The notes: generated from the sequence alone by a model not told the origin. A DNA stretch of 64,000 nucleotides from Escherichia coli (GCF_017348835.2 NZ_CP072315.1); one strand, 5' to 3'. Shown: positions 3,436-63,671, numbered from the stretch's first letter. Translations and numbers: made by a program.

Positions 3436-3446
3436 AAAGTTACTTT
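3436..3446. promoter_or_regulatory. AAAGTWACTTT palindromic motif copy
   Basis: aaagttacttt; about 160 bp upstream of the leftward gene starting at 3272. Confidence 0.5.
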
Positions 3447-3628
3447 TCCGTAATAGTTAATTTCAGATCCTTCTTCCAGTTACGCTTCAGTATAAAACCG
3501 ATACCCTCTAATTCAGCATCCTTCACGTTTAATACGCTTCACTTTAAGGCAGGGCTTTTCGGTTGATATGAATTCTTTTTCCGGTTGCTGGACATGGGTT
3601 TCATCCTGATAGTTAAAATTGCAGGCTA

Positions 3629-3931
3629 TCAGTCACCACCACCACCTCCTCCTCCTCCTCCTCCACCGCCACCATCACAACCACCAGCTATGCTATTTTC
3701 ACCATTACAATCACCTCCGAGGGGGTTCAAATGGCTGCTCCCCTGTAGATGGTGTCCTTGCCAGATCGAACCCGAACCAGCGCCTCCTGAGCGTCTTTGC
3801 TTGCCCTGAGGCAATTGTGCAGGCTCACCAGCACCGGCGGTCCCAAAAATGTCCCGGGCAATTTTATAAAGAAGGTAAAAAGGTACGCCCAGCATCATAA
3901 AAAAGATTACTGAAAATATTACACGTTCCAT
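3629..3931 (-). CDS. small Gly-rich membrane protein
   Basis: 100-aa ORF with N-terminal TM helix and a C-terminal run of 13 Gly encoded by the trinucleotide tract. Confidence 0.4.
   Translation of the reverse strand: MERVIFSVIFFMMLGVPFYLLYKIARDIFGTAGAGEPAQLPQGKQRRSGGAGSGSIWQGHHLQGSSHLNPLGGDCNGENSIAGGCDGGGGGGGGGGGGGD
3635..3690. repeat. trinucleotide simple-sequence tract (CCA/CCT)n
   Basis: caccaccaccacctcctcctcctcctcctccaccgccacc read directly; encodes a poly-Gly run in the minus-strand ORF. Confidence 0.8.
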
Positions 3932-4363
3932 TGATGATCTCCTGTCTTGTGAGAGACCAGTTATATCAGGGTGATTCAGTATTTCCGTTTAGAAAAGAGT
4001 ACTAATTTGGCCCTGTTCGATCTTAATTTGCCATCCGGGAAAAAGTCATAGGGATAGGCCTGCCAGAGTCAATAACTTCCAGTGATCTGGAGGAGACCCC
4101 GGCTCTCTGAGCCCTCATGGATGGTACGGCTTTACCCCCTGTAAACAGATTCACGTTCCGCAGGACAAACATCGACTACTGACGTCTCATATTTGCTGAC
4201 GCTAATCCGACGTCTCATTGCCGTCTGCTTGTTTTCTTTAAAGGGTGTATTAGACGAATATCAAATCGGAATGGTAGGGGATGTGTGGGCACCATGCCCG
4301 GCCCTCTTTGAGCATCTGAGAGATTGGAGACCTAGCCGGGTAAGATAGCTACTTTCTTACGGG

Positions 4364-4732
4364 TTACCCTTCAAATCCAAAGACGAAACGGACGCTGCCG
4401 TTCTCCACGTGGAGACGCTTTACTTCTTCGACAAATTCCTGGATCACCTCTCCGGCGTTATCGGGTGGTATGGCTGACAAAATTTCTTCCGAAGTCAGCC
4501 ATGAGTATGAATGTTCACCGAATAAATCATCATCTTCGGACGGTATATCATCAGGTAATCCGCGTAATGCGTGGATAAAAACTGCTGATGTGCTCGCCCT
4601 TTCACGATCTACATCAAATCCGAGCCAGGCAAAGTGGAGATATGATCGGTCCCCTTTATAATTGCTTGATAAATTAATCCATTTACCAGGCTTTTCTTCC
4701 CTTTGAAATCGCCAGCAGATATCAACGCCCAT
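4364..4732 (-). CDS. hypothetical protein
   Basis: 122-aa ORF, no recognisable motif. Confidence 0.4.
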   Translation of the reverse strand: MGVDICWRFQREEKPGKWINLSSNYKGDRSYLHFAWLGFDVDRERASTSAVFIHALRGLPDDIPSEDDDLFGEHSYSWLTSEEILSAIPPDNAGEVIQEFVEEVKRLHVENGSVRFVFGFEG

Positions 4733-4896
4733 TAAGAAACTCCATTACTATCGTTCGTATGAGATAACTATCATTTCAGAATACTATGACTTCTTCCCGT
4801 ATAGAACTAATCGCTCACGCCAACTGGGCGAAGCCAACCGGTTCCGCCACTTCGCTCATTGGTTTTTAGGCGTAAGCACTGAAGCCAGTCTCCATG

Positions 4897-5439
4897 CTAA
4901 CTGGCGAGCCTGCGAAAGTCAGACTCGTTGTTATAAAGCGGCATATCGTAAGCGGTGTCTGAAATGAACATGCGGATCTGCTCAAGCGTCATGCCACAAT
5001 GAAAACGGTTTACGCTCACATTGGCCCGGGGGAAGTCAGCACAAAACGCATTCAAAACATTTTCATGGACAATGCCAATGTTGATCAACGCAGCTGGCCC
5101 GTTGTCACGGAAGGATACGACACGGAATCCCCCATACCAGCCTGAATGGGAGAAAAATGAAAATGCGCCGGATGCCAGACCATTAGACAGGTCATAGCGC
5201 AATTTCCCGCACAGAGACTGGCTGTCTTTGCTGTACACGCGATTAATGAAAATACCGGGACCAACTTCTACCGGCTGCTTGTTGCTTGCTAAACACGGAA
5301 AGCCCACCAGCGAAACCTCCCTTTCTCCTGACCAGTTTACCTGATACCCGGCAGTGAGAAAGTCCGTCAGTTCTACGCCAGAAAGAGCATTAATGGCCGC
5401 GATATCGGTAGTCAAAATATTTACGTTTTTCATATTCAT
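4897..5439 (-). CDS. hypothetical protein
   Basis: 180-aa ORF, co-oriented with neighbours. Confidence 0.45.
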   Translation of the reverse strand: MNMKNVNILTTDIAAINALSGVELTDFLTAGYQVNWSGEREVSLVGFPCLASNKQPVEVGPGIFINRVYSKDSQSLCGKLRYDLSNGLASGAFSFFSHSGWYGGFRVVSFRDNGPAALINIGIVHENVLNAFCADFPRANVSVNRFHCGMTLEQIRMFISDTAYDMPLYNNESDFRRLAS

Positions 5440-5500
5440 CTCATCTTTATTCTAAAGTGCGTTTTTTGTCTATCAGCCCGAGGATTGAAAATTTGAATAT

Positions 5501-5938
5501 TTAATGTGACAGATAAATACCTGTCACTTTTTCAAAAACAGCCTGTAATTGAATATCGAGAGAGTTCATTTTAAAATCCACCAGCTCAGCTTTATTATCG
5601 CAAACCAAATAAAAATAGGAGTCAAATGCGTCTGTATCTTCATCTTTAAAAATACGGAAGGAATTAATTTTATCATGCCCTTCAAATTCGGCATGAATAC
5701 CATAGCGAACCGAGCCGTCATCGAACTGAACAACCCGTCGTACAGAATTAATCCGGACGTACTGTTTTAAGGCCCTCGCGAAATCGGCATTTAACGCCAA
5801 CGCTCGTAAGATTGAATCAGCGGTTTCATTCTGCTTTTTACGATCGTATTCAAATATCCCACAGCCGGTGTTACGAAAGACCGGCTGAAGAGCATTAACC
5901 AGGTTGAAGGAATCCACGTTTCTGTCGTTTCTGTACAT
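5501..5938 (-). CDS. hypothetical protein
   Basis: 145-aa ORF, co-oriented. Confidence 0.45.
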   Translation of the reverse strand: MYRNDRNVDSFNLVNALQPVFRNTGCGIFEYDRKKQNETADSILRALALNADFARALKQYVRINSVRRVVQFDDGSVRYGIHAEFEGHDKINSFRIFKDEDTDAFDSYFYLVCDNKAELVDFKMNSLDIQLQAVFEKVTGIYLSH

Positions 5939-5982
5939 GAGATATCTCCTGCCCCTCCGCTATACGAAGGGGCTTGATAGGG

Positions 5983-6279
5983 TTACTGCCAGGCTGCGAT
6001 CACTTCTTCGCACTGGAAATGAGATAAGCACTGCTGGAGTAGAAGAGCCAGCACCGCTGTGTTAGGGACGCGATTGTTACACCACGCGTTGAAAAGCAGC
6101 TGCCATGGACCGGCATAATACCCGGCCAGTTTCTTTTTTTGTTTAGCTGTACGGCAGCGGGAAATGGCCTGCTGATAAAGGCTTTCATTCTCATCACCAG
6201 CCCGTTTTTGCAGAGTGCGATAAATATACGAATAAAGACTGTCAGAACAGTTTGAAGCGTACGCCAGTTGTTTTTTCAT
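5983..6279 (-). CDS. hypothetical protein
   Basis: 98-aa ORF; conserved promoter-proximal element about 43 bp upstream of its start. Confidence 0.4.
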   Translation of the reverse strand: MKKQLAYASNCSDSLYSYIYRTLQKRAGDENESLYQQAISRCRTAKQKKKLAGYYAGPWQLLFNAWCNNRVPNTAVLALLLQQCLSHFQCEEVIAAWQ

Positions 6280-6321
6280 AATACCTCCTGTTTAGAAGTA
6301 TTATATGTAAACAGCCTCAGC

Positions 6322-6332
6322 GGCTAATAACC
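6322..6332 (-). promoter_or_regulatory. conserved promoter-proximal element (plus-strand GGCTAATAACC)
   Basis: About 43 bp upstream of the start at 6279. Confidence 0.45.
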
Positions 6333-6399
6333 CGTAGCAATATAATTTGCATTTTTTCTATTTCTGAAGACGCTTTTTAAATTAATATTTACTGAGTTA

Positions 6400-6678
6400 T
6401 CACAACTTATTATTCTTCCCGTCTGCTGTTTTATTAATCCCCCAGTTAGTAATCACGCCAAGTCGGCGCAATTTTTCACGTTGTTCATAAATAAAAAAAT
6501 CGCCAAGGCAGTCTTTTAAAACTTCACTATCCTGATATTTTATTTTTTGAAGCATCCTCGCAACTATGGCGCGTTTCAGGAATATGGCTGCATCAGACTC
6601 AAGCATTTGTGAGGACTGTCTGACGGTCTCCTGCATGTCGACGATACTGCTGAGCTTTCGTCTGACCACGCTTAGCAT
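6400..6678 (-). CDS. hypothetical protein
   Basis: 92-aa ORF. Confidence 0.35.
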   Translation of the reverse strand: MLSVVRRKLSSIVDMQETVRQSSQMLESDAAIFLKRAIVARMLQKIKYQDSEVLKDCLGDFFIYEQREKLRRLGVITNWGINKTADGKNNKL

Positions 6679-6862
6679 AGTGTCCGGGAACCGCTTAGCG
6701 GCTGAATGTAACCCGCAACAACGTTACGCATTGTTTTACTCACTGCAATTTTCCATTTAAGTCTGTTTGTTCCACCAGCTGCTAACATCAGCGTTATTCA
6801 TCCTGAGGTTTCGCCCGCGATTGACAGATCAGAGGCAGCATGGATGAAATTGCCAGAGTAGA

Positions 6863-7144
6863 TCACTGCATACGCGAATAGTGGTTTGTATTCAGTTCTG
6901 CGTTTGCCTGCTTTTCCAGTGCTGTCATAACCCGGCGGAGCATCGCCAGAGCCTGAACAGGCGAGCTCCCAAACTGCACTTTCACTTCAGCCGTATCATG
7001 ATCCTGAATCAGGTCGAGTATATTCACTTCGATCCCTGCCCCGTTTTCATCTTTTGCCGTGCACTGAATACTTACCCGGGTCACCGAATCCGTCAGGACT
7101 GGCAGTGGGTTAGTTTTGTCTACGTTGATAACAGCCTTCTTCAT
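6863..7144 (-). CDS. hypothetical protein
   Basis: 93-aa ORF directly downstream of the ParB-like gene. Confidence 0.4.
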   Translation of the reverse strand: MKKAVINVDKTNPLPVLTDSVTRVSIQCTAKDENGAGIEVNILDLIQDHDTAEVKVQFGSSPVQALAMLRRVMTALEKQANAELNTNHYSRMQ

Positions 7145-7209
7145 TGCCCTGTTTCCCCTTGTCCTGAAAAAGTTACCGACCCGTCCGGATGGAGGGGTCG
7201 GTCAGAAAA

Positions 7210-8394
7210 TCATGACTGTCCCTTGTTCATCTTATCAGCATGCTTACGCAGGTACTCTTTCAGGTCAGCATGAGCGTTGATGATATCGTTCATTTCATCA
7301 TTGGTCAGAACAAGCGTGTAAGTATCAGTACTGACAGATTCACCTTCTTTAAGCTTGGCTTCTTCAGCAATACGTTCAAAAATCGGGATCGCGGTGTCTG
7401 CAATGACGGTCACAGTCTTTTTGTTCAGAACGCTGGACATGGAAGGTGCTTTACCTGCCGGGTTCTGTTTAGGAGCGCTGTCCTTTGGAGCTGGAGCCGG
7501 TTCCTGTACCGGTGGCGTATCCAGCGTCTCCGTATTGCTTTCATCGTTCAGTTGATCCGGTACCGGGGTGTTATCGGTAGTATCATCTGCCGGTTGCTCA
7601 GCACCGATGTTTTCCGGAGTCTGCGGATCTGCCATGCGCTCTTCTACCTTGGCAGCTTTGACGAATTTCAGCGTGTTTTTCGTCGCCTTGCCATAGATGG
7701 AGATCGCTTTGTTGATGTTATCTACCGCATCCTCACCGCTGTACATATACTCGTCCAGTGCAACGTACATGCTCACCTGATCGCTCACAAGCATGGTCTG
7801 TAGTTCAGAAGGCAGGTCCAGTACGCGAACCATCTGGCGAAGATGCTGCTCTGATTTACCACGTTTTTTTGCCAGTTCCGCAAAGGTCTTAGGCTCTTCT
7901 TTATCTTCAACCAGACGCTTAATTGAAAGCGCTTCAGCTACGACAGACAGCGCCAGGTTGGAGTTGCCGGTCAGGGTGAAGAGTTCTGCTTTTGAAGCGC
8001 TACCGCGAAACTCTTCGCAGCGAATACGAGTAATGCGTTCACGCCCTTCTGCTTCCAGCTGGCGGTTTGCAATAGCGATGGAACGGATACGGCAAGCCCC
8101 CTGACGCAGTACAGGTACGCCATTAACCATCTGAACAACGATAGGCGTCACGCTGAACGGGTCTTCCATGTAGGCATCGGCCAGGCTGTTCAGGTGTTCC
8201 ACAACGTGAGGCATTGAATAGTAGAGCTCGCCCATACCGGCCGTGCGGGTGTTAAAGCCTTCCTGCTCTACAACAACCGAAGGGTCAATGATAAGGCCGT
8301 TGCCTTTACGGGCACCGTTACCAGTGCGTTCCAGGTAACCACGAAGGCTGATTTCGTTGCTGTTGTTTTTTACTTCAGTTTCGATTGCGGACAT
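7210..8394 (-). CDS. ParB/Srx-domain (ParB-like nuclease) protein
   Basis: N-terminal ParB-like block (GFNTR ... VVQMVNGVPVLRQGACRIRSIAIA), paralogous to the ORFs at 55984..57147 and 60358..61413; Pro/acidic linker; two palindromic motif copies upstream. Confidence 0.7.
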   Translation of the reverse strand: MSAIETEVKNNSNEISLRGYLERTGNGARKGNGLIIDPSVVVEQEGFNTRTAGMGELYYSMPHVVEHLNSLADAYMEDPFSVTPIVVQMVNGVPVLRQGACRIRSIAIANRQLEAEGRERITRIRCEEFRGSASKAELFTLTGNSNLALSVVAEALSIKRLVEDKEEPKTFAELAKKRGKSEQHLRQMVRVLDLPSELQTMLVSDQVSMYVALDEYMYSGEDAVDNINKAISIYGKATKNTLKFVKAAKVEERMADPQTPENIGAEQPADDTTDNTPVPDQLNDESNTETLDTPPVQEPAPAPKDSAPKQNPAGKAPSMSSVLNKKTVTVIADTAIPIFERIAEEAKLKEGESVSTDTYTLVLTNDEMNDIINAHADLKEYLRKHADKMNKGQS

Positions 8395-8484
8395 TTTTGT
8401 TCTCTTTTTTGGTTGGTTGTTTAACTGCGCTACAACACAACAATACCAGGTTCGACATTTTTCCTAATAGGTTGCGGAGAAGAA

Positions 8485-8495
8485 AAAGTAACTTT
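8485..8495. promoter_or_regulatory. AAAGTWACTTT palindromic motif copy
   Basis: aaagtaacttt; about 90 bp upstream of the ParB-like gene start at 8394. Confidence 0.5.
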
Positions 8496-8610
8496 TTTTA
8501 AAAATTTTCCTGAGGCAATACTACTCGATCCGTCCGTTTTAAATCTTCACAACAGTGGGCCGTTTTTACGTTTAAGCAAAATAACTGGTTCAGAAGGTGA
8601 CTCAGAGAGA

Positions 8611-8621
8611 AAAGTTACTTT
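8611..8621. promoter_or_regulatory. AAAGTWACTTT palindromic motif copy
   Basis: aaagttacttt; second copy upstream of the ParB-like gene. Confidence 0.5.
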
Positions 8622-9495
8622 TCCGGTTGTCTGGGCCAGTGATGGGAGAGTGGCAGGACAGGAATGGCTAAACCGGTGCGGGTCTCTTGTAAGTCGCAGG
8701 GGATTCAGGAGATATAGAGGTAAACTGGTACGTTCAGTTTTTGGATTGAGCCGGGCTTTTGGCCCGGGCTTAAGGAAGCAGAAATTTGAACGAACTGGCA
8801 GGTAATGCTTTATGCCGCCGACAGCTGGCCGTCAGTGCTTTGCTGTTCTGGTTTGACAGTTGGGGGATAACCGGCAGTTAGCCGCTGGCATTCCGCATCA
8901 CAGAAAGCCCTGAGGTTGCTGAAGACGGACTCCATGAAATCAGCATGAGCATACGAGTCTACAGGACGTGTCTTGTTATCTTTCATCTTGTTCTCCTCAA
9001 TCATTATTAAAACCAGCGGATTTAGTTTCTGGCGCTCCATCTGCTGACCGGCTTTCCCAGAGAGCAGCGATGTGTCGGGTTCTTTTTCTCATTTTATCGT
9101 TTTCATCGGGCCCATCCGGGCGTATAAGAGACCGATTTGGCATGTTTAGGAAACGTACTGGCGTAATTAAAAGCTGAGGTTGGATTTGGAATAAAAGGAT
9201 GCTTTTCCCGTTTGTCGGGTCTTTCGCCACCGCTGCACGATGATTCTGTCAGGCATTCTGCGCCCTCCCAGGCTGCACATCTGGAAACAAGCGTTGGGAT
9301 GTTCCCTTCCCCTGCTCACCGTAGAAAGATCGGCAAGTCCCGACGGTCGTTCCGTACGAGCCGGGTCCAAATAATGAATAAATAAAACGCCGCTTCAATT
9401 GTATTGACAATAGAAGTCAGGAGGATCATAGTGTCATTCATGGTGCGGCTTTCGCACCACCGCCCCGGCGGTACCGGGCAGAACTGGAGTACCTC

Positions 9496-10440
9496 ATGAA
9501 ACTTTCCCGTCAGACGACTTCTGATACTTCTGTTGATGGCCGTTCACGCGCATATGCCTGGGGCCGTGTCCATTATTTCATTATCGAACATGCACCAATG
9601 GCTGAGCTGGTCGCTATTGACGAGCTGCTGGAAAAAGCTGGCTGGAGCAATGACGGCTGTCCGAACTATGAGAAAGATGACGAGTTTGGTAATGCTGGTT
9701 ACAGCTGTGGTTACTGGATCGATATTGACAGCGTGGGAAGCTTCAAGGCTGACTACAAACGTCTTAAGGGGGAGATTAGTGCGCATATCGCCTCAAAGGC
9801 GGCAGAGGTGGAGATCCGCGTACTGGACTCGATGTCCGACAAAGAATGTAAAGATGTTGCCTCGGTGGCATCTACTGTTCGCCGTGACTTACGTACGCAG
9901 TCCGAATCGCTTCATTCACTGCGTACAATCGTAACGGTTGATCATTACAATCCCTATGTGACCACCAGCCGCCCGCTGAGCATTTCCGCCTGGACACTTA
10001 TCCACGACTGTCTGAAAACAGGCACCATCAATGACGTCTGTTCACGGTTGAGTTCATTAATCCTGCACTCTGAAGCCGCGATTGCCCGTTGTAAGGGAAG
10101 CTCCGACTACTCTTCGGAACACGCTCAGCTATCGTTTTTTGCTGGTAACGACTATGTCACCAGACGCACCCTTGTTGATGCAGCTCACGAAGAGGCTCTG
10201 CGAATGAACCGCCGCTTTGATGAACGCATTGCAATGAACGCGGATTCTGATGCCAGAAGGCTCCAGTGCGAATTCAACCTTAGCAACCATGTCGTACAGC
10301 GTAGGACCGTTGAATCTGCTCATATCCAGGCACTCAATGAAGACGTCACCCGTTCACAGGCGGAACCACGCTGCCCTGGAAAGCTTCTTCTGAATATGAC
10401 CAGTCATGAGGAAGTGCGGGACTCACTGAGCGCCTGTTAG
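9496..10440 (+). CDS. hypothetical protein
   Basis: 314-aa ORF; TTGACA-like hexamer about 90 bp upstream. Confidence 0.45.
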   Translation: MKLSRQTTSDTSVDGRSRAYAWGRVHYFIIEHAPMAELVAIDELLEKAGWSNDGCPNYEKDDEFGNAGYSCGYWIDIDSVGSFKADYKRLKGEISAHIASKAAEVEIRVLDSMSDKECKDVASVASTVRRDLRTQSESLHSLRTIVTVDHYNPYVTTSRPLSISAWTLIHDCLKTGTINDVCSRLSSLILHSEAAIARCKGSSDYSSEHAQLSFFAGNDYVTRRTLVDAAHEEALRMNRRFDERIAMNADSDARRLQCEFNLSNHVVQRRTVESAHIQALNEDVTRSQAEPRCPGKLLLNMTSHEEVRDSLSAC

Positions 10441-10536
10441 TCCAGCGACACCCCCTGCGGCTCTACTACCGGGCCGCAGTCTGCTCCTGCCCAGATGGTG
10501 CCAGTGGTGTAATGAATTTGTTTAATAAGGCTAAGT

Positions 10537-11139
10537 ATGATGAATAAAGAACAACTAATCGACAAACTGGAACGCGTGGTATGTGGTCAGTACTCCTACG
10601 AAATGCAGGAGCTTGCGTATTCGGCCCTCTGCTGCATTAAAGGCACCCCGGACGACTGCGCTAAGTTCCCTGTTACGCGTCCGCTGCCTGACACCTTAGT
10701 GGACGTATGGGACGAAATCGGGCAATACCTTGGCACAGGCAAAGCCATTGAAACTCGCAGTTGCGGCGTTTCGCTTCTGCTTCATGGACACTGCTACGAT
10801 TCAAATCATGTGCTTTACTGGCGCAATGCTGGCGCACTTCCAGCAGCTTGCGATACGCCACTGGCTGGTGGGTCTCGCAAACTGTTCACCTGCTCAGCCT
10901 GTGGAGTGGACGGTCTGGATGAACCACCTGAAACCAGTTGCCACTGCTGCACAGAGGGGGCCCACTGGGTTGAGAGCAGGCTCTTCACCTCCGGGCAGGC
11001 AGACCCTGAAGAATTTAGACCCGTGGCGGTCGTGAAAGAGTGTGCAGGCTCAACGCCGGATGATCGGCTCATCTGGAGTGTGATTGAACAGCTCAACGGC
11101 GAACTGGCGGAAGGCGATAAACTATTTAAGCGACGCTGA
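10537..11139 (+). CDS. hypothetical Cys-rich protein
   Basis: 200-aa ORF. Confidence 0.45.
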   Translation: MMNKEQLIDKLERVVCGQYSYEMQELAYSALCCIKGTPDDCAKFPVTRPLPDTLVDVWDEIGQYLGTGKAIETRSCGVSLLLHGHCYDSNHVLYWRNAGALPAACDTPLAGGSRKLFTCSACGVDGLDEPPETSCHCCTEGAHWVESRLFTSGQADPEEFRPVAVVKECAGSTPDDRLIWSVIEQLNGELAEGDKLFKRR

Positions 11140-11192
11140 CAGATCACGGCAGCATTTATAACAGACGAACTCCAGAATAATTTAAAGCAACC

Positions 11193-11549
11193 ATGAACAT
11201 GAAAAAGCCCAAAGCTGCATTACAGAATGCCATGAAAGAAGATGTGCCAGCTGTGACACAGATTCAGATGCGATCTACGGTTTCCAGAAAGGTTCGCTAT
11301 GTAAAACAGGCAAATCGAGAGGGTCTGAAATTATCTGAGTGGATGTCGCGGCATCTCGACGCTGTCTGTGATACCGCAGATGAGATTCATAAAGGCAAAC
11401 GCTCAACTCCGGTTGCGCCTGGGAAGATTCCCCCAGAGGTATACCAGGTGATATACGATCAGTGCGGCGGGTTCGTGGAGTGTGATGCTAATGCCCAGGT
11501 TATCTGGGAAGCCTGCCGTAATGCCATTCTTAACGGAGACAAAGGGTAA
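11193..11549 (+). CDS. hypothetical protein
   Basis: 118-aa ORF. Confidence 0.4.
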   Translation: MNMKKPKAALQNAMKEDVPAVTQIQMRSTVSRKVRYVKQANREGLKLSEWMSRHLDAVCDTADEIHKGKRSTPVAPGKIPPEVYQVIYDQCGGFVECDANAQVIWEACRNAILNGDKG

Positions 11550-11579
11550 ACGGCAGGTATCGCCTGTCATTTTACCCTT

Positions 11580-11798
11580 GTGAGGACAATACTGATGAAC
11601 CATGAGAGCCGAACTGTATACCTGAACACGGCCATTGAGGCCCTGCTGAAAGCTGAGGCGGCTCTGAACGATCTGGCATTAGCCTATGAGCTTAAACCTG
11701 ATGAAAAGGCAAGCGCATGCCATCCCAGAACCGGCACACTTTCCACTGCGTCCCAGGTAAAAAAACTCCGCCGTGTCCTTGAGAAGCAGAAGGTATGA
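11580..11798 (+). CDS. hypothetical protein
   Basis: 72-aa ORF, same-strand cluster. Confidence 0.3.
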   Translation: MRTILMNHESRTVYLNTAIEALLKAEAALNDLALAYELKPDEKASACHPRTGTLSTASQVKKLRRVLEKQKV

Positions 11799-12110
11799 AG
11801 GGCTGCATCAGCCAGGCCCGGATATAAATACATGCTCTGCCAGGTGAGTACCACTGCCCGGTAGCCGAATGATAAGTTTTGATTTCACGGTTGCAATTTC
11901 TCCCTCTGGCATCACTGCTCCACGATGCACCCCGATCAGCTTAGCGTCTGAAAATGAAGATGCACCGGACCTGCATGAAGCGGAACGGTGCCCAGCTGAG
12001 TGTTTGTGGGCACAATGAACCGCAATTTCATGATGGGAATGAAAGATGGCTGGTGGCCCGCTGATATGAACGCTTACCCTGCATAACGTTACTAACCACA
12101 ATCTTTTCAC

Positions 12111-12149
12111 TAAAAGAAAAAAGGGTTCCTCCGCTTTAGAGGAACCCTT
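12111..12149 (-). terminator. rho-independent terminator of the hok transcript
   Basis: Inverted repeat aagggttcctc/gaggaaccctt followed by a T-run on the minus strand; separated from the hok stop by the IS186 insertion. Confidence 0.5.
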
Positions 12150-12205
12150 TCAAAAGGTGCCGATGGCATACTAATCCACACCCTGAAAAGAGGGGGGTTG
12201 CCCCC

Positions 12206-13543: not shown

Positions 13544-13566
13544 GGGGTTGCCCCCCTCTTTGTCAG

Positions 13567-13725
13567 CTACTTACCGGATTCGTAGGCCAGGATAGCAAAT
13601 ACCTCCCTTGTTCCGTCTTTCATCCGCAACTCGCAAAGCGAGTTTCGTGTGAGCCAGGTGAATATCAACAGCGTTAAACAAACTATTAATATGCACAAAA
13701 CAATGGGTTGGTTCGGCATTTTCAT
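13567..13725 (-). CDS. hok: Hok/Gef-family type I toxin
   Basis: 52-aa product [52 protein letters not shown] closely resembles Hok; the ORF track shows an in-frame 5' extension to 13782. Confidence 0.8.
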
Positions 13726-13823
13726 GGCCTTCTTCTCCTTGCATTTAAGCAGGCAAGAGGCTACGCTGTGTGTGACTAGCATACAGGGGCCTCGGGTTGT
13801 ACTGACCCCAGAAAGTTGGACAG

Positions 13824-14675
13824 TTAAACACGAGGCATATAGGTCTGATTCCGATATTCAATTGGAGTCAGACCTTTTAATTTCAGGCTAATTCTTCTGC
13901 TGTTGTAGTATTCAATATATTCCGTAACAGCATCCTTCAGCTCGCTTATATTACTGAACTCATCAAGATAAAAACACTCCGACTTTAAGGTTCCAAAGAA
14001 ACACTCCACCACAGCATTATCCAGACAATTGCCTTTTCTGGACATGCTTTGTTTAATACCATGTTCTTTAAGGATATTTTGATATCTTCTCATACGATAC
14101 TGCCATCCCTGGTCAGAGTGCAGAACAGGATGCTCGTGAGGATTAAGCTTTTTGAATGCCTGATCGAGCATATTCTCGACCATGTTCATCACTGGTCTTT
14201 CCGAAAGGCTGTAAGAAATAACTTCGTTGTTGAAGAGATCTATTACTGGAGACAAATACAGCTTGCGCCCATTGACTGCAAATTCAGTAACATCGGTAAC
14301 CCACTTCTCGTTTGGCCGCGTAGCCTTGAAATCTCTTTGGAGAACATTGGGGGCGGTTTGCCCTACCTCTCCTCTGTAAGAGCGGTATCGCTTGACCTTA
14401 ATCGCTGCCTTCAGTGAGAGGATTCCCATCAGGCGCTGAACAGCTTTATGGTTAATCTGTTTCCCTTCTCGATGAAGAGACAGCGTTACCCTACGGTATC
14501 CGTATCGGCCTCTATTCTCATGATAAATCTCACCAATACGCTTTTTAACGTCCGCATACTTGTCAGGCTTGCTGAGAGCCTTTAGATGGTAATAAAACGT
14601 ACTGCGCGGTATCTCCGCAGCCCTGAGAAGCTCATCAAGAGGATAAAACTGCCTTAGCTCGTTGAGTACTTTCAC
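13824..14675 (-). CDS. insK: IS150 OrfB (DDE integrase part; made as OrfAB by -1 frameshift)
   Basis: 283-aa IS3-family integrase-like ORF overlapping OrfA at the A AAA AAG slippery site. Confidence 0.9.
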
Positions 14676-17314: not shown

Positions 17315-17364
17315 GATTAACTCTCCAGATTATGTGGAATCATTATAACAACTGGCATCCCGCC

Positions 17365-55983: not shown

Positions 55984-57147
55984 TTATTCTGCGTCCGGCT
56001 GTGGGTCAGTATCCTGATCGGTCTCTTCCCCTGCCTTCTTAGCATTTTTTTTACGTGGGTATTTTGGCTTCTCACCATTAAGTTTTGCCTGACGATTCTC
56101 CGCACGGCGAAGCTGCTTGTTCTCTGATTCTGTGATCTCTTTTGAAAGATTTCTCAACATCTCCAGAGTACTGCGGTTCAACGTAATGTTGATTTCTTCG
56201 TCAGCACTTGAATCTGTCAGCTCCGGCAATTCAATATCCCCCAGTTTCTGTAATAAGCTGGTGGTGATGAGTTTGACGCCTTCTACGGCTTTTGTGGCAA
56301 TAACCGGCGGAATCCGTGCTGGCTTGAAGTCTGAAGGTCTGACTCGTACCTGACCATGTTGGGTTTTTTTCACCGTGATGCCATTCGCATCGGCCTGCTC
56401 AAGTTCTGCGATCATCTTCTTGATACGTGAAATTGCTTCTGTTTCGCCGAGCTCATCGATCAGTGAAAGCACGTTAACATACGAAATAGCGTCAGCATGA
56501 ATCCATTTCTTGATAACAACAGAACAGGTTGTCAGGCGGATAAGAGAACTGATGGTCGTCGGGCTTTTATTTTCACGTTGAGCAATTCGTTCGAGTGACC
56601 AGCCAGCAAGAGAATGTAGGCGACGATAGGACTCGCCAAGCGCAACAGGAGAAAGCGCAAGACCACGGTTACCATCAATGGTCGCGAGCTCACAGCCAAT
56701 TTCATCTTCTTTAATCTCAACGCAAAGGATTGTGATGTCATGATCTTCATCACATGCCATCATTGCGGCTTTTAAACGGCAGTGCCCCTGGCGAACAAAA
56801 GGTACCCCATCAATGACACGTACTCGGATAGGGTCTACATAGTCACCTCGAATGTAGGCATTCTTGATGTTGTAGATGTGTTCTTCAACCTCAGGGAGCT
56901 TATAGTAATCGTCACCCATTCCCATTTCGCGGGAGTTGAAGCCTGGCGTGACCTGAATTACTGAAGGGTGGATAGCCCATGCTTTCTGGTCACTTACTTC
57001 AGTACAAAGTTCAGGGTTTGCATCACGGAACTGTTTAAGCCCAGTGACGTAACGGCCTGTGCCAGTAACTACTGAAAAGGCAACATGGGCCGTTTTAAAG
57101 ACCTTGTCATTAGCTTGCTGTGTAGGTTCTGTCAGTAAAACACTCAT
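55984..57147 (-). CDS. ParB/Srx-domain (ParB-like nuclease) protein
   Basis: GFNSREMG ... VIDGVPFVRQGHCRLKAAMMA block paralogous to 7210..8394 and 60358..61413. Confidence 0.7.
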   Translation of the reverse strand: MSVLLTEPTQQANDKVFKTAHVAFSVVTGTGRYVTGLKQFRDANPELCTEVSDQKAWAIHPSVIQVTPGFNSREMGMGDDYYKLPEVEEHIYNIKNAYIRGDYVDPIRVRVIDGVPFVRQGHCRLKAAMMACDEDHDITILCVEIKEDEIGCELATIDGNRGLALSPVALGESYRRLHSLAGWSLERIAQRENKSPTTISSLIRLTTCSVVIKKWIHADAISYVNVLSLIDELGETEAISRIKKMIAELEQADANGITVKKTQHGQVRVRPSDFKPARIPPVIATKAVEGVKLITTSLLQKLGDIELPELTDSSADEEINITLNRSTLEMLRNLSKEITESENKQLRRAENRQAKLNGEKPKYPRKKNAKKAGEETDQDTDPQPDAE

Positions 57148-57495
57148 AGGGGCTCCGTTACATTTTTCTGCTTACTTTCTGCGTAGCGGGGATACTACCG
57201 AAAAAAAAATTCATAATTTTTCGCAAAAAAGGTACTTTTTGAGCCTATTCTGATTTTTTACAAAAAAAGGTGGCTCCCCATTACTTGTGATGGCATAAAA
57301 ATCGCTTCATAAACAAATACATAAATCCAAAACATAAAGTTCAGGTATAAGTGAGGAAAAATCTTATAAATCCGAAATGCTGAAAGTCAAAACTGTGCGT
57401 CTTAAACAACTTTTTTTTGCTCCCTAAGTTATTAGTTAAAGCCCGTGGTTAGGTACGATACCAGCACCTAAATTTCTCTCTCAGGTATAGACACT

Positions 57496-58329
57496 TTGAC
57501 TCGACATCTCAGACACATGCCGATAATCAAATGGGCTGGTGGAAAAACGAAACTGATGCCTTTCATCAGCCATCACTACCCACACGATCATAGTTGCCGG
57601 TGGGTAGAACCCTTTATAGGCGGTGGTGCCGTTTTTCTGAACATGTTTGCACAAAATGCATTGCTTGCAGATAGCAATCCAGACTTGATCAACCTATACA
57701 GGACTATTCAAAGACAGAAAACTAACTTTATAAATCAGGTCCAAAACTTGGCGGATAAAACCTTTGTCGAAAAGGACTACTATGAGATGAGGGACCGTTT
57801 CAACAAAACCTGTATTTCTGGTCAATCGCTTCAAAGAGCGGCTTTGTTTTACTCCCTGAATCGCCTGGGCTATAACGGTATGTGCCGCTATAACTCAGAA
57901 AGAATCTATTCAGTGCCGTGGGGGAAACATACAGAACTGAAGCTTGACCTCAATAAAATAGACTACCTTTCATTTCGTCTTTCAGGTATTGAACTGATCA
58001 CCGCTGGTTTTGAGGAGACTCTGGCCGCAACCGGTGAAGGAGATCAGATTTACTGTGATCCGCCATATGACAAAACAAGCAAAACTAGTTTTGTCAGTTA
58101 CGATGGTAAACCGTTCAGCCAAAGCGACCACGTGCTGTTAGCAAATATGCTCGTTGACGCTCACAGAAAAGGCGCTGCTGTTGCGATATCAAATAGCCTG
58201 ACATCATTCACTTTGGGCCTCGATGAAGAGCGTGGATTCGTCATACACAGACTCAGCGCTTACCGATCCGTAGGAAGTAAGCCGAATACACGGAAAACGG
58301 AAACAGAAATACTGGCCGTGCTGAAATAG
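57496..58329 (+). CDS. Dam-family DNA adenine methyltransferase
   Basis: IKWAGGK, FIGGGAVF and CDPPYD motifs characteristic of Dam-type enzymes. Confidence 0.85.
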   Translation: MTRHLRHMPIIKWAGGKTKLMPFISHHYPHDHSCRWVEPFIGGGAVFLNMFAQNALLADSNPDLINLYRTIQRQKTNFINQVQNLADKTFVEKDYYEMRDRFNKTCISGQSLQRAALFYSLNRLGYNGMCRYNSERIYSVPWGKHTELKLDLNKIDYLSFRLSGIELITAGFEETLAATGEGDQIYCDPPYDKTSKTSFVSYDGKPFSQSDHVLLANMLVDAHRKGAAVAISNSLTSFTLGLDEERGFVIHRLSAYRSVGSKPNTRKTETEILAVLK

Positions 58330-58337: not shown

Positions 58338-59003
58338 CTAATCAACTAGGCTAATCCATTCCTCAAAAGTTAATACCTCAGGGTAAGTTCGTTGAACATA
58401 AGGTATAAACTGAAGCTCTTCTATTCTCCGGTCGCCCCTCTTTCCTTCGCAAATAAATGAAATGAGTCCTTGCTGAGAAAGGCCAGTAAGGACGCTCATA
58501 AGTCTTATATTTAGACTTTTAAGCTGTAAGTCGTTATTAATGTCCTCCACTTTATGAGAGCTCTGGCCTGAACGTTTAAGATACTCGTAAACCATGAAAT
58601 TCGAATTTCGTCGTTTTAACAATTTTTCGGTTATGCATTCCTGAATGAAGTCGCCAAGAGCATCTAAAAGCGGACTGAGAACTACCGGGAAAGTTAATGT
58701 GTAACTTTGAGAAGTTTTAGACAAAGTGAATGAGTTTAGAAAGCTAAAGTTTAGTCTCTTTTTTGAATATGGAACATAAGCGACAAGAGTAGTCGACATA
58801 ACAGTAAGTAAAGCTTCAAGATGGTTCACTGTTATTAAAGTGGTTTTATCTGTATTTCTAAGATTATGGAAATCAATAAACGCTACTCTTGAACGGCTAA
58901 GCCAATCTTGTACTTTAATGTCGATAGAAAATTGCGAGATATGATTTGAACATTCATTTTGGGTGATAGGGCATGCAGACGAAAGATGGTTATGGATTAT
59001 CAT
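58338..59003 (-). CDS. hypothetical protein (start uncertain)
   Basis: The long ORF runs to 59195 but its 5' part covers the palindromic motif at 59092, so an internal ATG at 59003 is proposed; no clear RBS. Confidence 0.3.
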   Translation of the reverse strand: MIIHNHLSSACPITQNECSNHISQFSIDIKVQDWLSRSRVAFIDFHNLRNTDKTTLITVNHLEALLTVMSTTLVAYVPYSKKRLNFSFLNSFTLSKTSQSYTLTFPVVLSPLLDALGDFIQECITEKLLKRRNSNFMVYEYLKRSGQSSHKVEDINNDLQLKSLNIRLMSVLTGLSQQGLISFICEGKRGDRRIEELQFIPYVQRTYPEVLTFEEWISLVD

Positions 59004-59091
59004 GCATAGCACAAAAAAAGGAAAACGGCAGGCTGTGGGGCATTGAAAACCGGTTAAAGAAAGCTTAGACGTTTCATATGCGCTTACCGGA

Positions 59092-59102
59092 AAAGTAACT
59101 TT
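59092..59102. promoter_or_regulatory. AAAGTWACTTT palindromic motif copy
   Basis: aaagtaacttt; upstream of the proposed start at 59003. Confidence 0.45.
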
Positions 59103-59426
59103 TCTTAACGTTGGCTTTGACGATGTTCTTGCATTTTTACAAATGAAACCGAGACCCAGATCATTGTGCATTTTAAAGTCCATCTCCATCATCACCTTTT
59201 AGCCTTAACTGTATGGTATTGGTATACAAAAAATTAAAATTATAATTAATAAGATTATCATTTTTTTACAATAGAAAAGGTTCTGATAGAGGGGAATTTA
59301 AATGTAAAAGATTTATACTCGCAGATCTTTATGAGGGATAAAACCCATTGCGTAAGCAACAATATTACGTGAGTGAGTCCTAACGACAGTTAAAGTCTTG
59401 GCTCTATATTTAAGCAGCAAAAACAT

Positions 59427-60357: not shown

Positions 60358-61413
60358 TTAATATTCCTTAAGGAGATCTCGAATTTCCAGAAGCTCTTCT
60401 AATTTTGGTTTAGAAACAATGATTGCTGTATTTTCGTCGTTAAGTAAAGACAATAAAATATTTAGCTTTTCATCATTCAAGATTATTTGAACACCATCAT
60501 TGGAAAATATTACATTATTACTATTAACATTTTTGAACAAGTGTGCACTATCTCTACCAAATTTTAGTTCTGTTTGAGTATTCGTTATAGATTCCGTATG
60601 TGTACTTTCCACAAGCTCAAGAAATTCAGATTTTAGCCGTTCTGTTTTCTTATGCGAGAGGCGCTTAATACCCAAAGTCTTACGAGTGACTGCCGAATTT
60701 TTCTTTTCTGGTCCGCCTTTATTTAAGGTGTCTGGTCCTGCTCCAGCTGCATTGTGTTCAGGTATGCCTACAATTTTGCTCGTTGTAGTCTCAATATTCT
60801 TAACGCCAGGTAAGAAACCTTCTATATGTTTTAAAACCATTTTGTGATCGTTGGAATATTTTAACATTATTTCAATGGCGAGCGTTTTTTTGATTAGATT
60901 TAGGCTAATCAAACGTTGAAGCTCTAATGGCATATCAAGGATTTTTAGCATATTACGAATTGCGGTAGTTGATCGTTGATATCGCATTGCTAGTTCTTCA
61001 ACCGAATACCCGAGACTAACAGCATGAGCTAATGCATGAGCTTGCCCAACCGGATTTAGCCCATTGCTTCTGTTACCATCGAGGTTCTCAAGGTATTCTT
61101 CAATTTCGTTTTTATAATCGATTAGGATAACAGATAATTTTGGAATATTAGCACCTTCAGAAATTGCTAATTTTAAGCCATGAAAACGAGTATGACCTTG
61201 ACGAACTAAATATTTACCTTTTCTTTTTACGACCTTGATCATATCAACCTGCCTTCCTTCCTTAAAGGCTTGTTTGATTGACACAATCATCGACTTGACA
61301 GGTTCTTGTTCGTAACACAAATCTCCGATTACCGCCTCTCGGGGATTAAATCCCTTTTCAATTTCAACTAGATTAGTATCCACTTCAATGACTGTATGTT
61401 TGCTGTTGTTCAT
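60358..61413 (-). CDS. ParB/Srx-domain (ParB-like nuclease) protein
   Basis: GFNPREAV ... VVKRKGKYLVRQGHTRFHGLKLAI block; third ParB-like paralog. Confidence 0.7.
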   Translation of the reverse strand: MNNSKHTVIEVDTNLVEIEKGFNPREAVIGDLCYEQEPVKSMIVSIKQAFKEGRQVDMIKVVKRKGKYLVRQGHTRFHGLKLAISEGANIPKLSVILIDYKNEIEEYLENLDGNRSNGLNPVGQAHALAHAVSLGYSVEELAMRYQRSTTAIRNMLKILDMPLELQRLISLNLIKKTLAIEIMLKYSNDHKMVLKHIEGFLPGVKNIETTTSKIVGIPEHNAAGAGPDTLNKGGPEKKNSAVTRKTLGIKRLSHKKTERLKSEFLELVESTHTESITNTQTELKFGRDSAHLFKNVNSNNVIFSNDGVQIILNDEKLNILLSLLNDENTAIIVSKPKLEELLEIRDLLKEY

Positions 61414-61699
61414 ATCTTCCTCCTGTTTACTACATGATACATGAACCTCAAATTTGCCAAATAGGGCTGATACATCTAAAAGGTAAACTCAAAAAATTTG
61501 CTTAATAAAATTAAAATAAAAACTGTCTTGAATAAAACAATGATAGTAGACCCTCGTTCATTTCCGTTTGCGATCTGTAGATATTGTTAAAGGAGCGCTA
61601 TTCCTTGTTTTATATGGACTTATCATTGTTTTCAACAGGATAGATCAATTCTTTAGATCACTAAAGATCAATAGAGTTCAAGTAAAGATCACGGCATCT

Positions 61700-61870
61700 T
61701 TAACTCATTGATTATAGTGACTTTATGAAAGGATCCGGCATTCGGATGCATGCGAAAAGCATTTGAATGAATAAGGAAGGCATTTACTGGAATGCTTATG
61801 GCATTTAGGTTAATGCGTAAAAAGCATTTGCAAGAATATGTTATAAACAGTTTGCCAAATGAAAATCTTA
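61700..61870. repeat. iteron-like repeats upstream of the second repA
   Basis: Repeated (A/G)GCATTT(G/A) ... AATGC units (aaaagcatttgaatgaat, ggcatttactggaatgc, aaagcatttgcaagaat). Confidence 0.5.
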
Positions 61871-61889
61871 TCACCGACGAGTTAAGTTA

Positions 61890-62765
61890 ATGATTAAAAA
61901 CAACGAGTTAATCCATCCTTTTGACGTAACCAGTAATGAATCAGGTAAGACTTATCAACTGACGCCTAACTCGTCCAAGTCGGTTCAGCCCGTGGCCCTG
62001 TTGAGATTGAGTGTATTTACCCCTGTCGGCACAAAAGAAAACCGCGACCGAAACTTTGAAGTTGATGCCTCTGATGAGCTTTCGTGTATGGAAATTGCAA
62101 GATCGGAGGGTTATGACGACATCAAGATAACTGGTGTCAAACTATCTATGTCTACCGACTTTAAGTGCTGGCTCGGGATCATCATGGCTTTCAGTAAATA
62201 TGGTTTTACTTCCGAGAAGATTACCCTGACTTTTAACGAGTTTGCGAAGATGTGTGGTATCAGTTCAACAAACATCAACAAACGAACTCGTGCGCGCTTT
62301 AAAGAGTCATTAATGAACCTTGCATCGGTAGTGCTTGCCTTCTCAGACTCTCGGAGTGGTCGGTTCACAGTAACGCATCTGGTGCAGAAGGCTATGATTG
62401 ATCCAAAAAGCGATACTGTTGAGTTGGTTGGGGATCCTTCTATGTGGGAACTGTATCGTTACGACCATAAGACATTGTTAAGCCTTCAGGTTCTATACAT
62501 TTTGGCTAAAAAAGAAGCTGCGCAATCTCTCTATATTTATTTTGAAGCAATGCCAGCTGGTACGTTGTTCGTTAATATGAAACGGTTGAGGGAAAGGTTG
62601 CTTCTTACAACCCCTATTCGTACGCAAAACCAGATAATTCGTAAAGCAATGCGGGAACTTGAATCTATCGGATATCTCGATTATCAAGAAGTTAAGAAAG
62701 GTCGCGACATACAATTTCAGATCTTCAAAAGAAGCCCTAAGCTGGCCCTCGCCAAACAAGGTTGA
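61890..62765 (+). CDS. repA: plasmid replication initiator RepA (second Rep_3-type replicon)
   Basis: SVQPVALLRLSVFTP, DFKCWLGII, THLVQKAMIDPKSD, WELYRYDHKTLLSLQ and AAQSLYIYFEAMP blocks collinear with the repA at 47391..48479 but clearly diverged. Confidence 0.85.
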   Translation: MIKNNELIHPFDVTSNESGKTYQLTPNSSKSVQPVALLRLSVFTPVGTKENRDRNFEVDASDELSCMEIARSEGYDDIKITGVKLSMSTDFKCWLGIIMAFSKYGFTSEKITLTFNEFAKMCGISSTNINKRTRARFKESLMNLASVVLAFSDSRSGRFTVTHLVQKAMIDPKSDTVELVGDPSMWELYRYDHKTLLSLQVLYILAKKEAAQSLYIYFEAMPAGTLFVNMKRLRERLLLTTPIRTQNQIIRKAMRELESIGYLDYQEVKKGRDIQFQIFKRSPKLALAKQG

Positions 62766-62989
62766 AAGCTACCAGGTATGCACTGGTTATAACATGCTGA
62801 AAAATAAGTTATTTATCAGTGCTATGCTTAGTGCTTCTTTTACTACTGGTCTTACATCTCGGCTTAATGTGCAAAAAAGTAACTTTTCAAACGAACTCCT
62901 GACTATTCATCTGTATGCCTTTCTGGCTCAAGCGTACATGCTAGCCCATTCATTAAATGCCGTGGAGCAAGATGGTTTCGTGCGCACTC

Positions 62990-63500
62990 TATTCACGTGA
63001 ATGCCTTTTGTGGATTACGCCTCTTACATTCATACAAATGCTTTTGATGTCGGTATCCCAAAAAATCATTCATTGAAATGCTTTTGTTTGCCACTGTATC
63101 CCGAGCATAGCTATGCAGTGGTATAAAAAGGCATTTTGGTGAATGGCATTAGGTCGAATGACACACAGTACAGCTTTGTTAAGAGCGAGAATGGTCCAAG
63201 ACATCTATGACATTGGGCATCAGAAGGACTATGTGTTTGATATGAGATCAAAAAAATATCAGAAGCATCACAACTCCAATGGCATTCAAAGAAATGCCTT
63301 TGTTTTGTTAGTACACCAAACAACCCAAAATTCATGCAGTTATATCAAAGACTCATTCGCAAAAGGACTCAGCCAGAAAGCATTTGCTTAAATAGCATTG
63401 GCCAAAAGCATTCGAATGAATGATGTTCATATGGACAAGACAAAGTCCCACTCACGCCCAGAGGTGTAAAAGGCATTTAGATGAATGACGCACCGGCCGA
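62990..63500. repeat. iteron-like repeats downstream of the second repA
   Basis: Many copies of AATGC(C/T)TTT / AAAGCATT-type units in both orientations. Confidence 0.5.
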
Positions 63501-63660
63501 GGATTGTATGTAGTTTCTCCAACTGATAGTTGCCGAACCAGGGAGCACAGTGATATGCGGCCTTCTCAGAATCAAGAGATAGATATTAAGGGAACAAAAA
63601 AGATTAGATATGAAGCTTAGTTACCTGCCCGATATCTAGTTAGAGCTTTTCAAACCATCA

Positions 63661-63671
63661 AAAGTGACTTT
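63661..63671. promoter_or_regulatory. AAAGTWACTTT motif, one-mismatch variant
   Basis: aaagtgacttt near the right edge of the window. Confidence 0.3.

Follow-up and report, generated by a model that had tools for sequence, protein, structure and literature searches.

The stretch of Escherichia coli DNA analysed here (GCF_017348835.2, NZ_CP072315.1; 64,000 nucleotides, hereafter the window) raises the question of why a short palindrome, AAAGTWACTTT, recurs along the backbone of a large conjugative plasmid, and which protein it may serve. The window matched, at 100% identity, many R478-type IncHI2 plasmids from E. coli, Salmonella and Enterobacter (with a MOBH relaxase and MPF_F transfer genes), and no match to it was found among phage records. 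A sequence-only reading of this DNA had proposed that one regulator controls many operons of the region through the palindrome, which is plausible. The results described below indicate that the motif is, with high confidence, a protein-binding palindrome under strong selection that is spread over the backbone of plasmids of the IncHI family, and they favour, somewhat above an even chance, its interpretation as the parS/operator-type site of an orphan ParB/KorB-fold protein with plasmid-wide regulatory consequences.

Fourteen exact copies of the motif were counted in the window, against an average of 0.07 and at most 2 in 100 dinucleotide-preserving shuffles, and 20 matches were obtained when up to one mismatch was allowed, against 1.9 expected. 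The earlier judgement that such a frequency was unlikely by chance was thus borne out, and the earlier tally of 12 exact copies plus one variant was correct for the variant, at 63661, and two copies short for the exact matches, those overlooked being possibly the pair located inside coding sequences (41585 and 59092). The information in the aligned sites was limited to positions –6 to +7, and the resulting consensus, G-A-AAAGTWACTTT-T-C, is a palindrome of 13-15 bp with an odd centre. Two complete plasmids, R478 (IncHI2, 274,762 bp) and R27 (IncHI1, 180,461 bp), were assembled for the analysis, and AAAGTWACTTT was the commonest 11-mer in both of them. The central position also tolerated G or C, with 54 any-centre copies in R478 and 46 in R27. 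When the sites were oriented relative to the downstream gene, the centre was T in 22 of 43 cases, and this lack of bias is expected for symmetric recognition; the symmetric site is of the type that protein dimers bind, in agreement with the dimeric site suggested before. A scan for palindromes with arms of 5-7 bases and spacers of 0-8 revealed AAAGTWACTTT as the sole strongly over-represented palindrome of R478 and R27. Another candidate, GGAGTGA-N7-TCACTCC, was discarded, being located within IS26 copies.

The copies in the window were mostly intergenic (12 of the 14 exact sites, against a non-coding fraction of 28%, p = 1e-5), gene coordinates being those of the RefSeq annotation transferred from identical plasmids. 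The claim that all of them were intergenic held for these 12 and failed for 41585 and 59092, which lie inside annotated coding sequences, and the placement of the sites 90-220 bp upstream of leftward gene starts was reproduced, with 96-227 bp from site centre to start codon. What did not stand was the local scope of the proposed regulon: the excess is real in the 64 kb, and it marks the IncHI backbone as a whole. In fact, R478 carried 47 exact copies and R27 carried 42, against 0.25 and 0.15 expected from a first-order Markov model. The backbone of R478 (~202 kb) held 46 of its copies, about one per 4.4 kb, and the 72.5 kb of transposon and resistance islands held a single one. The copies were spread over both transfer regions, the oriT and ter regions, the surroundings of the ParM-type partition genes, and the whole stretch corresponding to the window. 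Intergenic enrichment was also observed at the plasmid scale, with 27 of 47 copies in R478 against 18.6% non-coding DNA (p = 4e-9) and 20 of 42 in R27 against 20% (p = 7e-5), and 38-50% of the copies plasmid-wide were placed inside genes.

Evidence for selection on the site came from the comparison of the two plasmids. Twenty-four R478 sites had ±250-bp flanks alignable to R27, with a mean identity of 72%, and the exact motif was present in both plasmids at 21 of them, while only 4.9% of the control 11-column windows taken from the same alignments were fully identical (p about 6e-25). The conserved sites included several intragenic ones, found in trhI, rsp, the coupling-protein gene (twice, with the offsets of R478 and R27 being the same), a von Willebrand factor A (VWA) gene, a Tus-like gene, and trhH. 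The intragenic copies spanned all three reading frames, encoding K-V-T-F/L, E/K-S-N-F or K-K-L-L, and therefore the constraint acts on the DNA and not on the peptide.

The comparison of flanks of ±50-70 bp revealed no shared similarity beyond ~2 bases on each side, and with unrelated flanks the motif is not part of a mobile repeat. The sequence-only reading had named two outcomes that would speak against it, a frequency explained by chance and flanks belonging to a larger mobile repeat, and the data showed neither. As for promoters, the positional information of the 43 gene-oriented intergenic sites revealed neither a –10 nor a –35 element at a constant offset, and no informative positions outside –6 to +7 that could correspond to an operator for a KorA/TrbA-type co-repressor; in addition, σ70-like matches in positions 1-20000 of the window were no commoner than in shuffled sequence. 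The conserved copies within genes, together with the lack of a fixed distance to promoter elements, therefore bring the motif closer to the dispersed loading sites of the parS/OB type than to classical promoter operators.

The same motif was found in other plasmids, and it was enriched in every IncHI-like lineage sampled. For example, 17 copies were present in 40 kb of a Klebsiella MOBH plasmid, 5 in 26 kb of an IncHI1B plasmid, and 11 exact copies (14 with any centre) in 31 kb of an IncHI3-like Klebsiella plasmid. A Yersinia intermedia contig and a Leclercia-type contig held 7 and 5 copies in 21 kb each, and two further metagenomic lineages held 7 (21 kb) and 5 (17 kb). The motif was unchanged in the Klebsiella, IncHI3-like, Yersinia, Leclercia-type and two metagenomic lineages, in which the ParB-like protein described below was only 35-50% identical. 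A scan of ~100,000 species genomes for paired sites (two copies 90-120 bp apart) returned 70 loci, mostly chance or tandem-repeat matches in unrelated phyla; those in Enterobacterales, the only ones of relevance here, amounted to only five contigs, from Klebsiella grimontii, Pluralibacter and Photorhabdus. In a Lachnospiraceae metagenome-assembled contig (14-898), nine copies of the 11-mer occurred at multiples of 52 bp; this array is an unrelated tandem repeat that holds the 11-mer by chance, and it shows that paired-site scans catch such arrays.

A different palindrome was found in the related MOBH lineage IncC. No copy of AAAGTWACTTT was present in 40 kb of the IncC plasmid pB557-NDM, in which ACTTTCACATGTGAAAGT occurred seven times (at 293, 3877, 4336, 9651, 12987, 24031 and 27446) in short intergenic spacers, one of them before parA. 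This dispersed IncC palindrome was recovered here independently of its published description as the dispersed parS of the IncC ParB (PMC10954446). The arms of ACTTTCACATGTGAAAGT hold ACTTT and AAAGT, pentamers that are shared with the IncHI motif and stand in the opposite arrangement.

The window offers three candidate binders, all of them leftward genes coding for proteins with a ParB-type helix-turn-helix (HTH). These are the ParB-like (PBL) proteins PBL394 (394 aa, 7210-8394), an orphan protein of the ParB/KorB fold with an N-terminal ParB-like domain carrying GFNTR and RQGxCRxRA, the HTH, a long acidic linker and C-terminal helices; PBL387 (387 aa, 55984-57147), which by our mapping is R0042 of R27, annotated as 'partition protein'; and PBL351 (351 aa, 60358-61413), which is divergent from the RepB-family gene. 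The three paralogues share 26-32% pairwise identity, and the Pfam domain HTH_ParB (PF17762) was detected in all of them (E = 1e-5 to 2e-4); matches to the NCBIfam models parB_part and Noc fell under the curated cut-offs, and the nearest sequences in the PDB were chromosomal ParB, Spo0J and Noc. The alignment of the family displayed three invariant motifs, GFNTR, RQGxCRxR(A/S), and GN followed by L-x-L-S, which resemble boxes I, II (in a non-canonical form) and III of ParB. In box II, R97-Q98-G99 and R102 were invariant; compared with the canonical GERRxRA, the glycine and two arginines are kept and the glutamate and first arginine are replaced. The AlphaFold (AF2) model of PBL394 had a predicted local distance difference test (pLDDT) score above 90 for residues 20-250, followed by the disordered acidic linker and the C-terminal helices, and its best match in the PDB was KorB of RK2 (8qa9; E = 4e-8, template modelling (TM) score of 0.64 on the target), followed by ParB-CTPγS, Noc, Caulobacter ParB, and Spo0J. 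These alignments, with E-values from 4e-8 to 1e-6, covered 215-240 columns corresponding to the N-terminal domain plus the HTH, the KorB entry being C-terminally truncated, and the model accordingly predicts an N-terminal ParB/Srx (CTPase-type) domain ahead of the HTH in PBL394. No gene for a ParA-type ATPase was found beside any of the PBL genes in the window, R478 or R27, so that these are orphan ParB-like genes. The analogy with the KorA/KorB regulons that had been drawn from the sequence was strengthened by the presence of three ParB-HTH paralogues in the window, the modelled one being nearest to KorB in fold.

The distribution of sites around these genes was also considered. The motif was found upstream of PBL394 orthologues in five of five lineages, each with between 1 and 6 copies at distances of 96-870 bp. 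They stand at 96 and 222 bp in IncHI2, 100 and 218 bp in R27, 109 and 210 bp in Yersinia, 257 bp in the Leclercia-type contig, and 121 bp in the Klebsiella plasmid, the latter with five more within 870 bp. In the window, these sites correspond to a proximal copy at 8485-8495 and a distal one at 8611-8621, a pair that is kept in R27. They are compatible with autoregulation of the PBL394 gene and also with this gene being only a target. The gene for PBL387 was preceded, in the window, by AAAGGTACTTT (57228-57238, 86 bp upstream), a variant one base off next to the centre that was present 86-95 bp before the gene in both IncHI2 and R27 (45096-45106). This looser copy, mentioned in the sequence-only reading, is probably real, because R27 has the same variant in the same place, and it may be a deliberately weaker site or one specific to PBL387. 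The degenerate copy proposed at 35142 (AATATTACTTT, two mismatches), on the other hand, was indistinguishable from chance. No site was found directly upstream of the PBL351 gene in IncHI1 or IncHI2, and the palindrome scan of R478 and R27 yielded no second over-represented palindrome that could be the target of other paralogues. Microarray data on R27 indicated that R0104 and R0042 were highly expressed at both 25 and 37 °C, while their neighbours were expressed at low levels (PMC7366339); by our own mapping, these genes would correspond to PBL394 and PBL387.

The interpretation favoured here, a parS/operator-type site of an orphan ParB/KorB-fold protein, can be put in the following terms. A dimeric plasmid-encoded protein would recognise AAAGTWACTTT, a site that selection keeps at ~45 places of the backbone, one per 4-5 kb; if the analogy with KorB/OB of IncP plasmids and ParB/parS of IncC plasmids holds, the protein would use these places as scattered operators or loading sites. 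The protein, for which PBL394 is the best candidate among the three paralogues, would autoregulate from the sites upstream of its own gene and would exert plasmid-wide control of backbone expression, either as silencing or as anti-silencing of the VirB kind. We infer the identity of the binder, the CTP-driven sliding or spreading, and the choice between repression and activation from these likenesses.

One of the two closest parallels is that of KorB. Its operators on the IncP plasmids RK2/RP4, termed OB (TTTAGCSGCTAAA), occur in 12 copies. Both OB and the IncHI motif are 13-bp palindromes with an odd, degenerate centre, their densities are alike (about one per 5 kb of backbone), and in both systems sites are found near and far from promoters; likewise, the candidate PBL394 has a ParB-type N-terminal domain plus HTH, has KorB (8qa9) as its best structural match, and has sites before its own gene. 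The two systems differ in that the site sequences are unrelated, PBL394 and KorB are only 17-19% identical in the structural alignment, the PBL proteins lack the canonical form of the GERRxRA box and an adjoining ParA partner of the IncC type, and no KorA-like motif stands at a fixed distance in IncHI. KorB has been described as a CTP-dependent sliding clamp captured at promoters (PMC11790492).

Similarly, 14 dispersed 22-bp parS palindromes (AAACTTTCACATGTGAAAGTTT), 10 of them intergenic and 4 within open reading frames (ORFs), were reported on IncC plasmids for the KorB-domain ParB of the parAB053 system, and binding of this ParB was demonstrated by electrophoretic mobility shift assay for representative sites (PMC10954446). 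IncC is a related lineage, sharing the MOBH relaxase and MPF_F transfer genes, and its palindromes are scattered through the conserved backbone as in IncHI. However, the sites differ in sequence and length, the copy number in IncHI is ~3 times higher, and one of the IncC copies is part of the promoter of parA, the protein that binds them being the partition ParB, whereas IncHI has no copy near parAB in the flanks scanned and parAB there has tandem arrays of its own. Compared with both KorB and IncC, the IncHI sites are uncoupled from a ParA/ParB partition operon, and the candidate proteins are orphan paralogues with a non-canonical box II.

Orphan ParB-like regulators of transcription have also been described on the Shigella virulence plasmid (VirB; PMC3905869) and on ICEclc (BisD; bioRxiv 10.1101/2024.09.16.613209). 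These are ParB-family proteins without a ParA partner; their target is an inverted repeat resembling parS, from which they influence transcription at a distance. VirB counteracts repression by H-NS, and genes for H-NS and Hha are carried by the IncHI plasmids themselves. Only a handful of sites are known for VirB and BisD, compared with ~45 in IncHI. The occupation of many dispersed palindromic sites by a ParB-fold protein is known from Noc and its binding sites (NBS), and Noc, Spo0J and ParB ranked high when the PBL proteins were matched by sequence and by fold; the Noc/NBS and chromosomal ParB/parS systems differ in being chromosomal, in their roles (nucleoid occlusion and origin segregation) and in their unrelated site sequences. 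By analogy, the IncHI motif would be best classed as a further case of dispersed ParB/KorB-type sites on conjugative plasmids.

Several observations weigh against this interpretation or against PBL394 as the binder. In the first place, the Pfam domain ParBc was undetected in all three PBL proteins, in which the HTH alone was found, and CTP binding or hydrolysis is uncertain given that RQGxCRxRA takes the place of GERRxRA. Second, exact copies of the motif were located 117-130 bp upstream of PBL387 homologues in the IncHI3-like and other lineages, and the recognition helix most conserved across lineages was that of PBL351. The helix of the PBL394 family (S-E-Q-H-x-R) was kept in all lineages but one, and that of the PBL387 family differed between the IncHI1/2 and IncHI3 types; a ranking of the paralogues by helix conservation, which sets PBL387 apart from the conserved PBL351 and PBL394, is not decisive. 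Since the upstream sites and the helix conservation point to different paralogues, the binder is not pinned to one of them, and the three are computationally inseparable. Third, the IncC homologue of the PBL family (the 'ParB-like regulator' R55_24) only adjoins a parS site, the IncC binder being the partition ParB and not this homologue, which weakens inference by homology and indicates that the PBL genes may be targets. Finally, a plasmid-wide circuit, TrhR/TrhY-HtdA, is already known for IncHI plasmids and has no assigned DNA site.

A bolder extension of the ParB/KorB-type reading, which must be regarded as speculative and rather doubtful, is that an orphan ParB-CTPase-like clamp with ~45 loading sites ties the 200-kb backbone into one switchable expression domain. 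Such a clamp system would be the physical basis of the temperature- and HtdA/TrhRY-dependent switch that affects 139 of 181 R27 genes, operating by silencing or by VirB-like relief of H-NS repression, and the ParB-like protein on the motif would act as the platform through which the TrhR/TrhY-HtdA circuit works. If true, the clamp system would be a possible target for blocking the spread of IncHI resistance plasmids. 

In Salmonella, E. coli, Enterobacter and Klebsiella, much of the multidrug, mcr and tet(X) resistance is carried by IncHI1 and IncHI2 plasmids, of whose genes two-thirds have no known function. In this context, one sharply defined site, kept across IncHI-like lineages and placed before many transcription units, provides a concrete handle on regulation, together with three named candidate proteins. 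The motif could account for plasmid-wide silencing, low fitness cost and temperature-dependent transfer, and would extend the principle of dispersed sites as global controllers, as in KorB and the IncC ParB, to the resistance plasmids of greatest size in enterobacteria. The motif was not found described in the searchable literature, older subscription papers on R27 and R478 being outside its reach, and a search combining IncHI with ParB, KorB or parS likewise gave nothing on it.

Among the alternatives to a ParB/KorB-type site, the one that survives best, although unlikely, is that the motif is the DNA target of the IncHI conjugation circuit itself, in which the activators TrhR/TrhY are countered by HtdA and an activator site would stand before most backbone promoters. 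It was reported that the htdA mutation derepressed 139 of the 181 expressed R27 genes at 25 °C, 106 of them non-tra, and that the unaffected genes were those of the transposon, tet, cit, muc and parAB (PMC7366339), a pattern that roughly parallels the near absence of the motif from the transposon and resistance islands of R478. Moreover, sites were found in the oriT region, before the presumed trhR and mobI, and in the R0009-trhP spacer, which is promoter-active, and no DNA site of TrhR/TrhY has been assigned in the accessible papers. However, no DNA-binding domain was detected with NCBIfam or Pfam in the presumed TrhR, TrhY and HtdA of R478, identified by synteny, and a short perfect palindrome conserved inside long ORFs and at convergent gene ends has no obvious role in activation. 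A fixed spacing between site and promoter elements was missing; a site stands before the presumed R operon, which was reported as not regulated by HtdA; and another is present in the trhW-trhU spacer, in which no promoter activity was observed.

Less likely again is an ordinary small dimeric repressor, encoded among the small backbone genes, for which the motif would be the operator of a classical promoter regulon. The intergenic enrichment of the sites, typically 90-230 bp upstream of start codons, fits this proposal, as does the conservation of many small proteins without known function in all lineages examined. It does not fit the fact that a third to half of the sites are intragenic and conserved, nor the variable promoter geometry and the shuffle-level number of σ70-like matches; furthermore, no small repressor was identified, whereas three ParB-HTH proteins are present.

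It is improbable, in turn, that the motif is the dispersed parS of the IncHI partition system Par1 (ParA plus a SopB-like ParB), as in IncC, serving mainly segregation rather than regulation. The arrangement is identical to the proven IncC case in a related MOBH family, with similar density and a similar mix of intergenic and in-ORF sites. Nevertheless, no copy was found, even with one mismatch, in the DNA flanking parA (3.8 kb of R478 and 3.1 kb of R27 scanned), and the ParB of Par1 was similar neither to the ParB of IncC nor to the PBL proteins. R478 carries, next to its SopB-like parAB operon, two arrays of 249-bp tandem repeats (12516-15095 of that plasmid, outside the window) with ~4 copies each, containing GATTTAACCCCCTTAATCGCCA, and their repeat words are abundant in R27; these arrays are likely the dedicated centromere of Par1, distinct from the motif.

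A marginally poorer chance is given to recognition by a conserved host protein of the Enterobacterales, such as a nucleoid-associated, replication or segregation factor. This idea draws on the invariance of the motif across plasmids that reside in Escherichia, Klebsiella, Yersinia and Photorhabdus and whose own proteins share as little as 35% identity. Against it, we know of no host-factor consensus that fits the motif (CRP, Fis, IHF, MatP, SlmA, OmpR and others), the matches of the paired-site scan in Enterobacterales were confined to the five contigs already mentioned, of which one, from K. grimontii, also encodes a PBL387 homologue, and the related IncC plasmids have a different palindrome, bound by their own ParB. 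As for a by-product of a mobile repeat (similar to miniature inverted-repeat transposable elements, MITEs, or repetitive extragenic palindromes, REPs) or a compositional artefact, which copy number alone would favour, it was ruled out by the dissimilar flanks, the 0.07-0.25 copies expected, and the orthologous positions in IncHI1 and IncHI2.

The remaining exact sites of the window were examined one by one. Six of them are intergenic copies in front of leftward genes without further distinction: AAAGTTACTTT at 3436-3446, with its centre 169 bp upstream of the gene 2988-3272, and those at 18398-18408 (146 bp upstream of 18054-18257), 20605-20615 (157 bp upstream of 20133-20453), 28384-28394 (212 bp upstream of 27851-28177), 32596-32606 (176 bp upstream of 32048-32425) and 23336-23346, the last one 138 bp upstream of 22964-23203 and downstream of the gene for a DndC-like protein of 794 aa. 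Two copies share a divergent spacer, between an immunoglobulin (Ig)-like gene (49587-52043, leftward) and a rightward gene (52416-53042): the site at 52200-52210 is 162 and 211 bp from the respective starts, and that at 52265-52275 is 227 and 146 bp from them. Another Ig-like gene (41285-43705) contains a site at 41585-41595, 300 nt into the gene (R478 position 256067), with an exact copy aligned in R27, and is followed by one at 43809-43819, 104 bp past its stop codon. The other intragenic copy, at 59092-59102 (R478 position 271966), lies ~95 nt past the annotated start of a leftward gene coding for 285 aa (58338-59192) and is conserved in R27. The last exact copy, at 62876-62886, is 111 bp downstream of the RepB-family gene (61890-62765).

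Variants with G or C at the centre were found at two places of the window. The first, AAAGTGACTTT at 63661-63671, lies 248 bp upstream of the gene preceding traL, which is probably the pilin gene trhA, a name given by inference; the R27 equivalent of this site is AAAGTCACTTT. The second, AAAGTCACTTT at 36765-36775, lies inside an Ig-like gene (35274-37664) and is also present in R478, and its status is uncertain. Just 3′ of the RepB-family replication gene, the motif is conserved in IncHI2 (62876 and 63661), R27 (39447) and the Klebsiella plasmid (1162, 1729, 1846 and 2017), which may point to a connection with this replicon or with its origin. At one orthologous site (R478 38410-38438, R27 2001-2025), the half-site AGTAACTTT stands 4-5 bp before the full palindrome, and the combination could be a one-and-a-half site.

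With respect to its gene content, the window starts in a conjugal-transfer operon with genes for an S49 peptidase and a nuclease, which in R478 follow those for the relaxase and the coupling protein, and continues with ~50 small leftward genes without known function, several orphan methyltransferase genes, the gene for the DndC-like 794-aa protein and those for three 800-aa Ig-like proteins. The repHI2 and RepB-family replicons follow, and the window ends just before traL, where the second transfer-gene cluster starts. The DndC/3′-phosphoadenosine-5′-phosphosulfate (PAPS)-reductase-like protein and orphan methyltransferases, encoded at 23453-25837, 29020-30270, 39007-39831 and 57496-58329, include among the latter a Dam-family enzyme, an N6-adenine-type enzyme (416 aa) and a small S-adenosylmethionine (SAM)-dependent methyltransferase; the combination is reminiscent of the anti-restriction genes known from the leading regions of plasmids. 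The backbone is interrupted by IS186/IS421, IS150 and an IS91-family transposase gene (12203-13545, 13824-15193 and 44611-45810), and a hok-family toxin gene is present at ~13567-13686. Finally, repHI2 is flanked by iteron-like tandem repeats (46155-46902 and 48719-49221), composed of an 81-bp unit repeated ~9 times with TGACAACGGTAGTGA / TCACTACCATTGTCA plus 21-bp units, which are the source of the second commonest 11-mers of the window.

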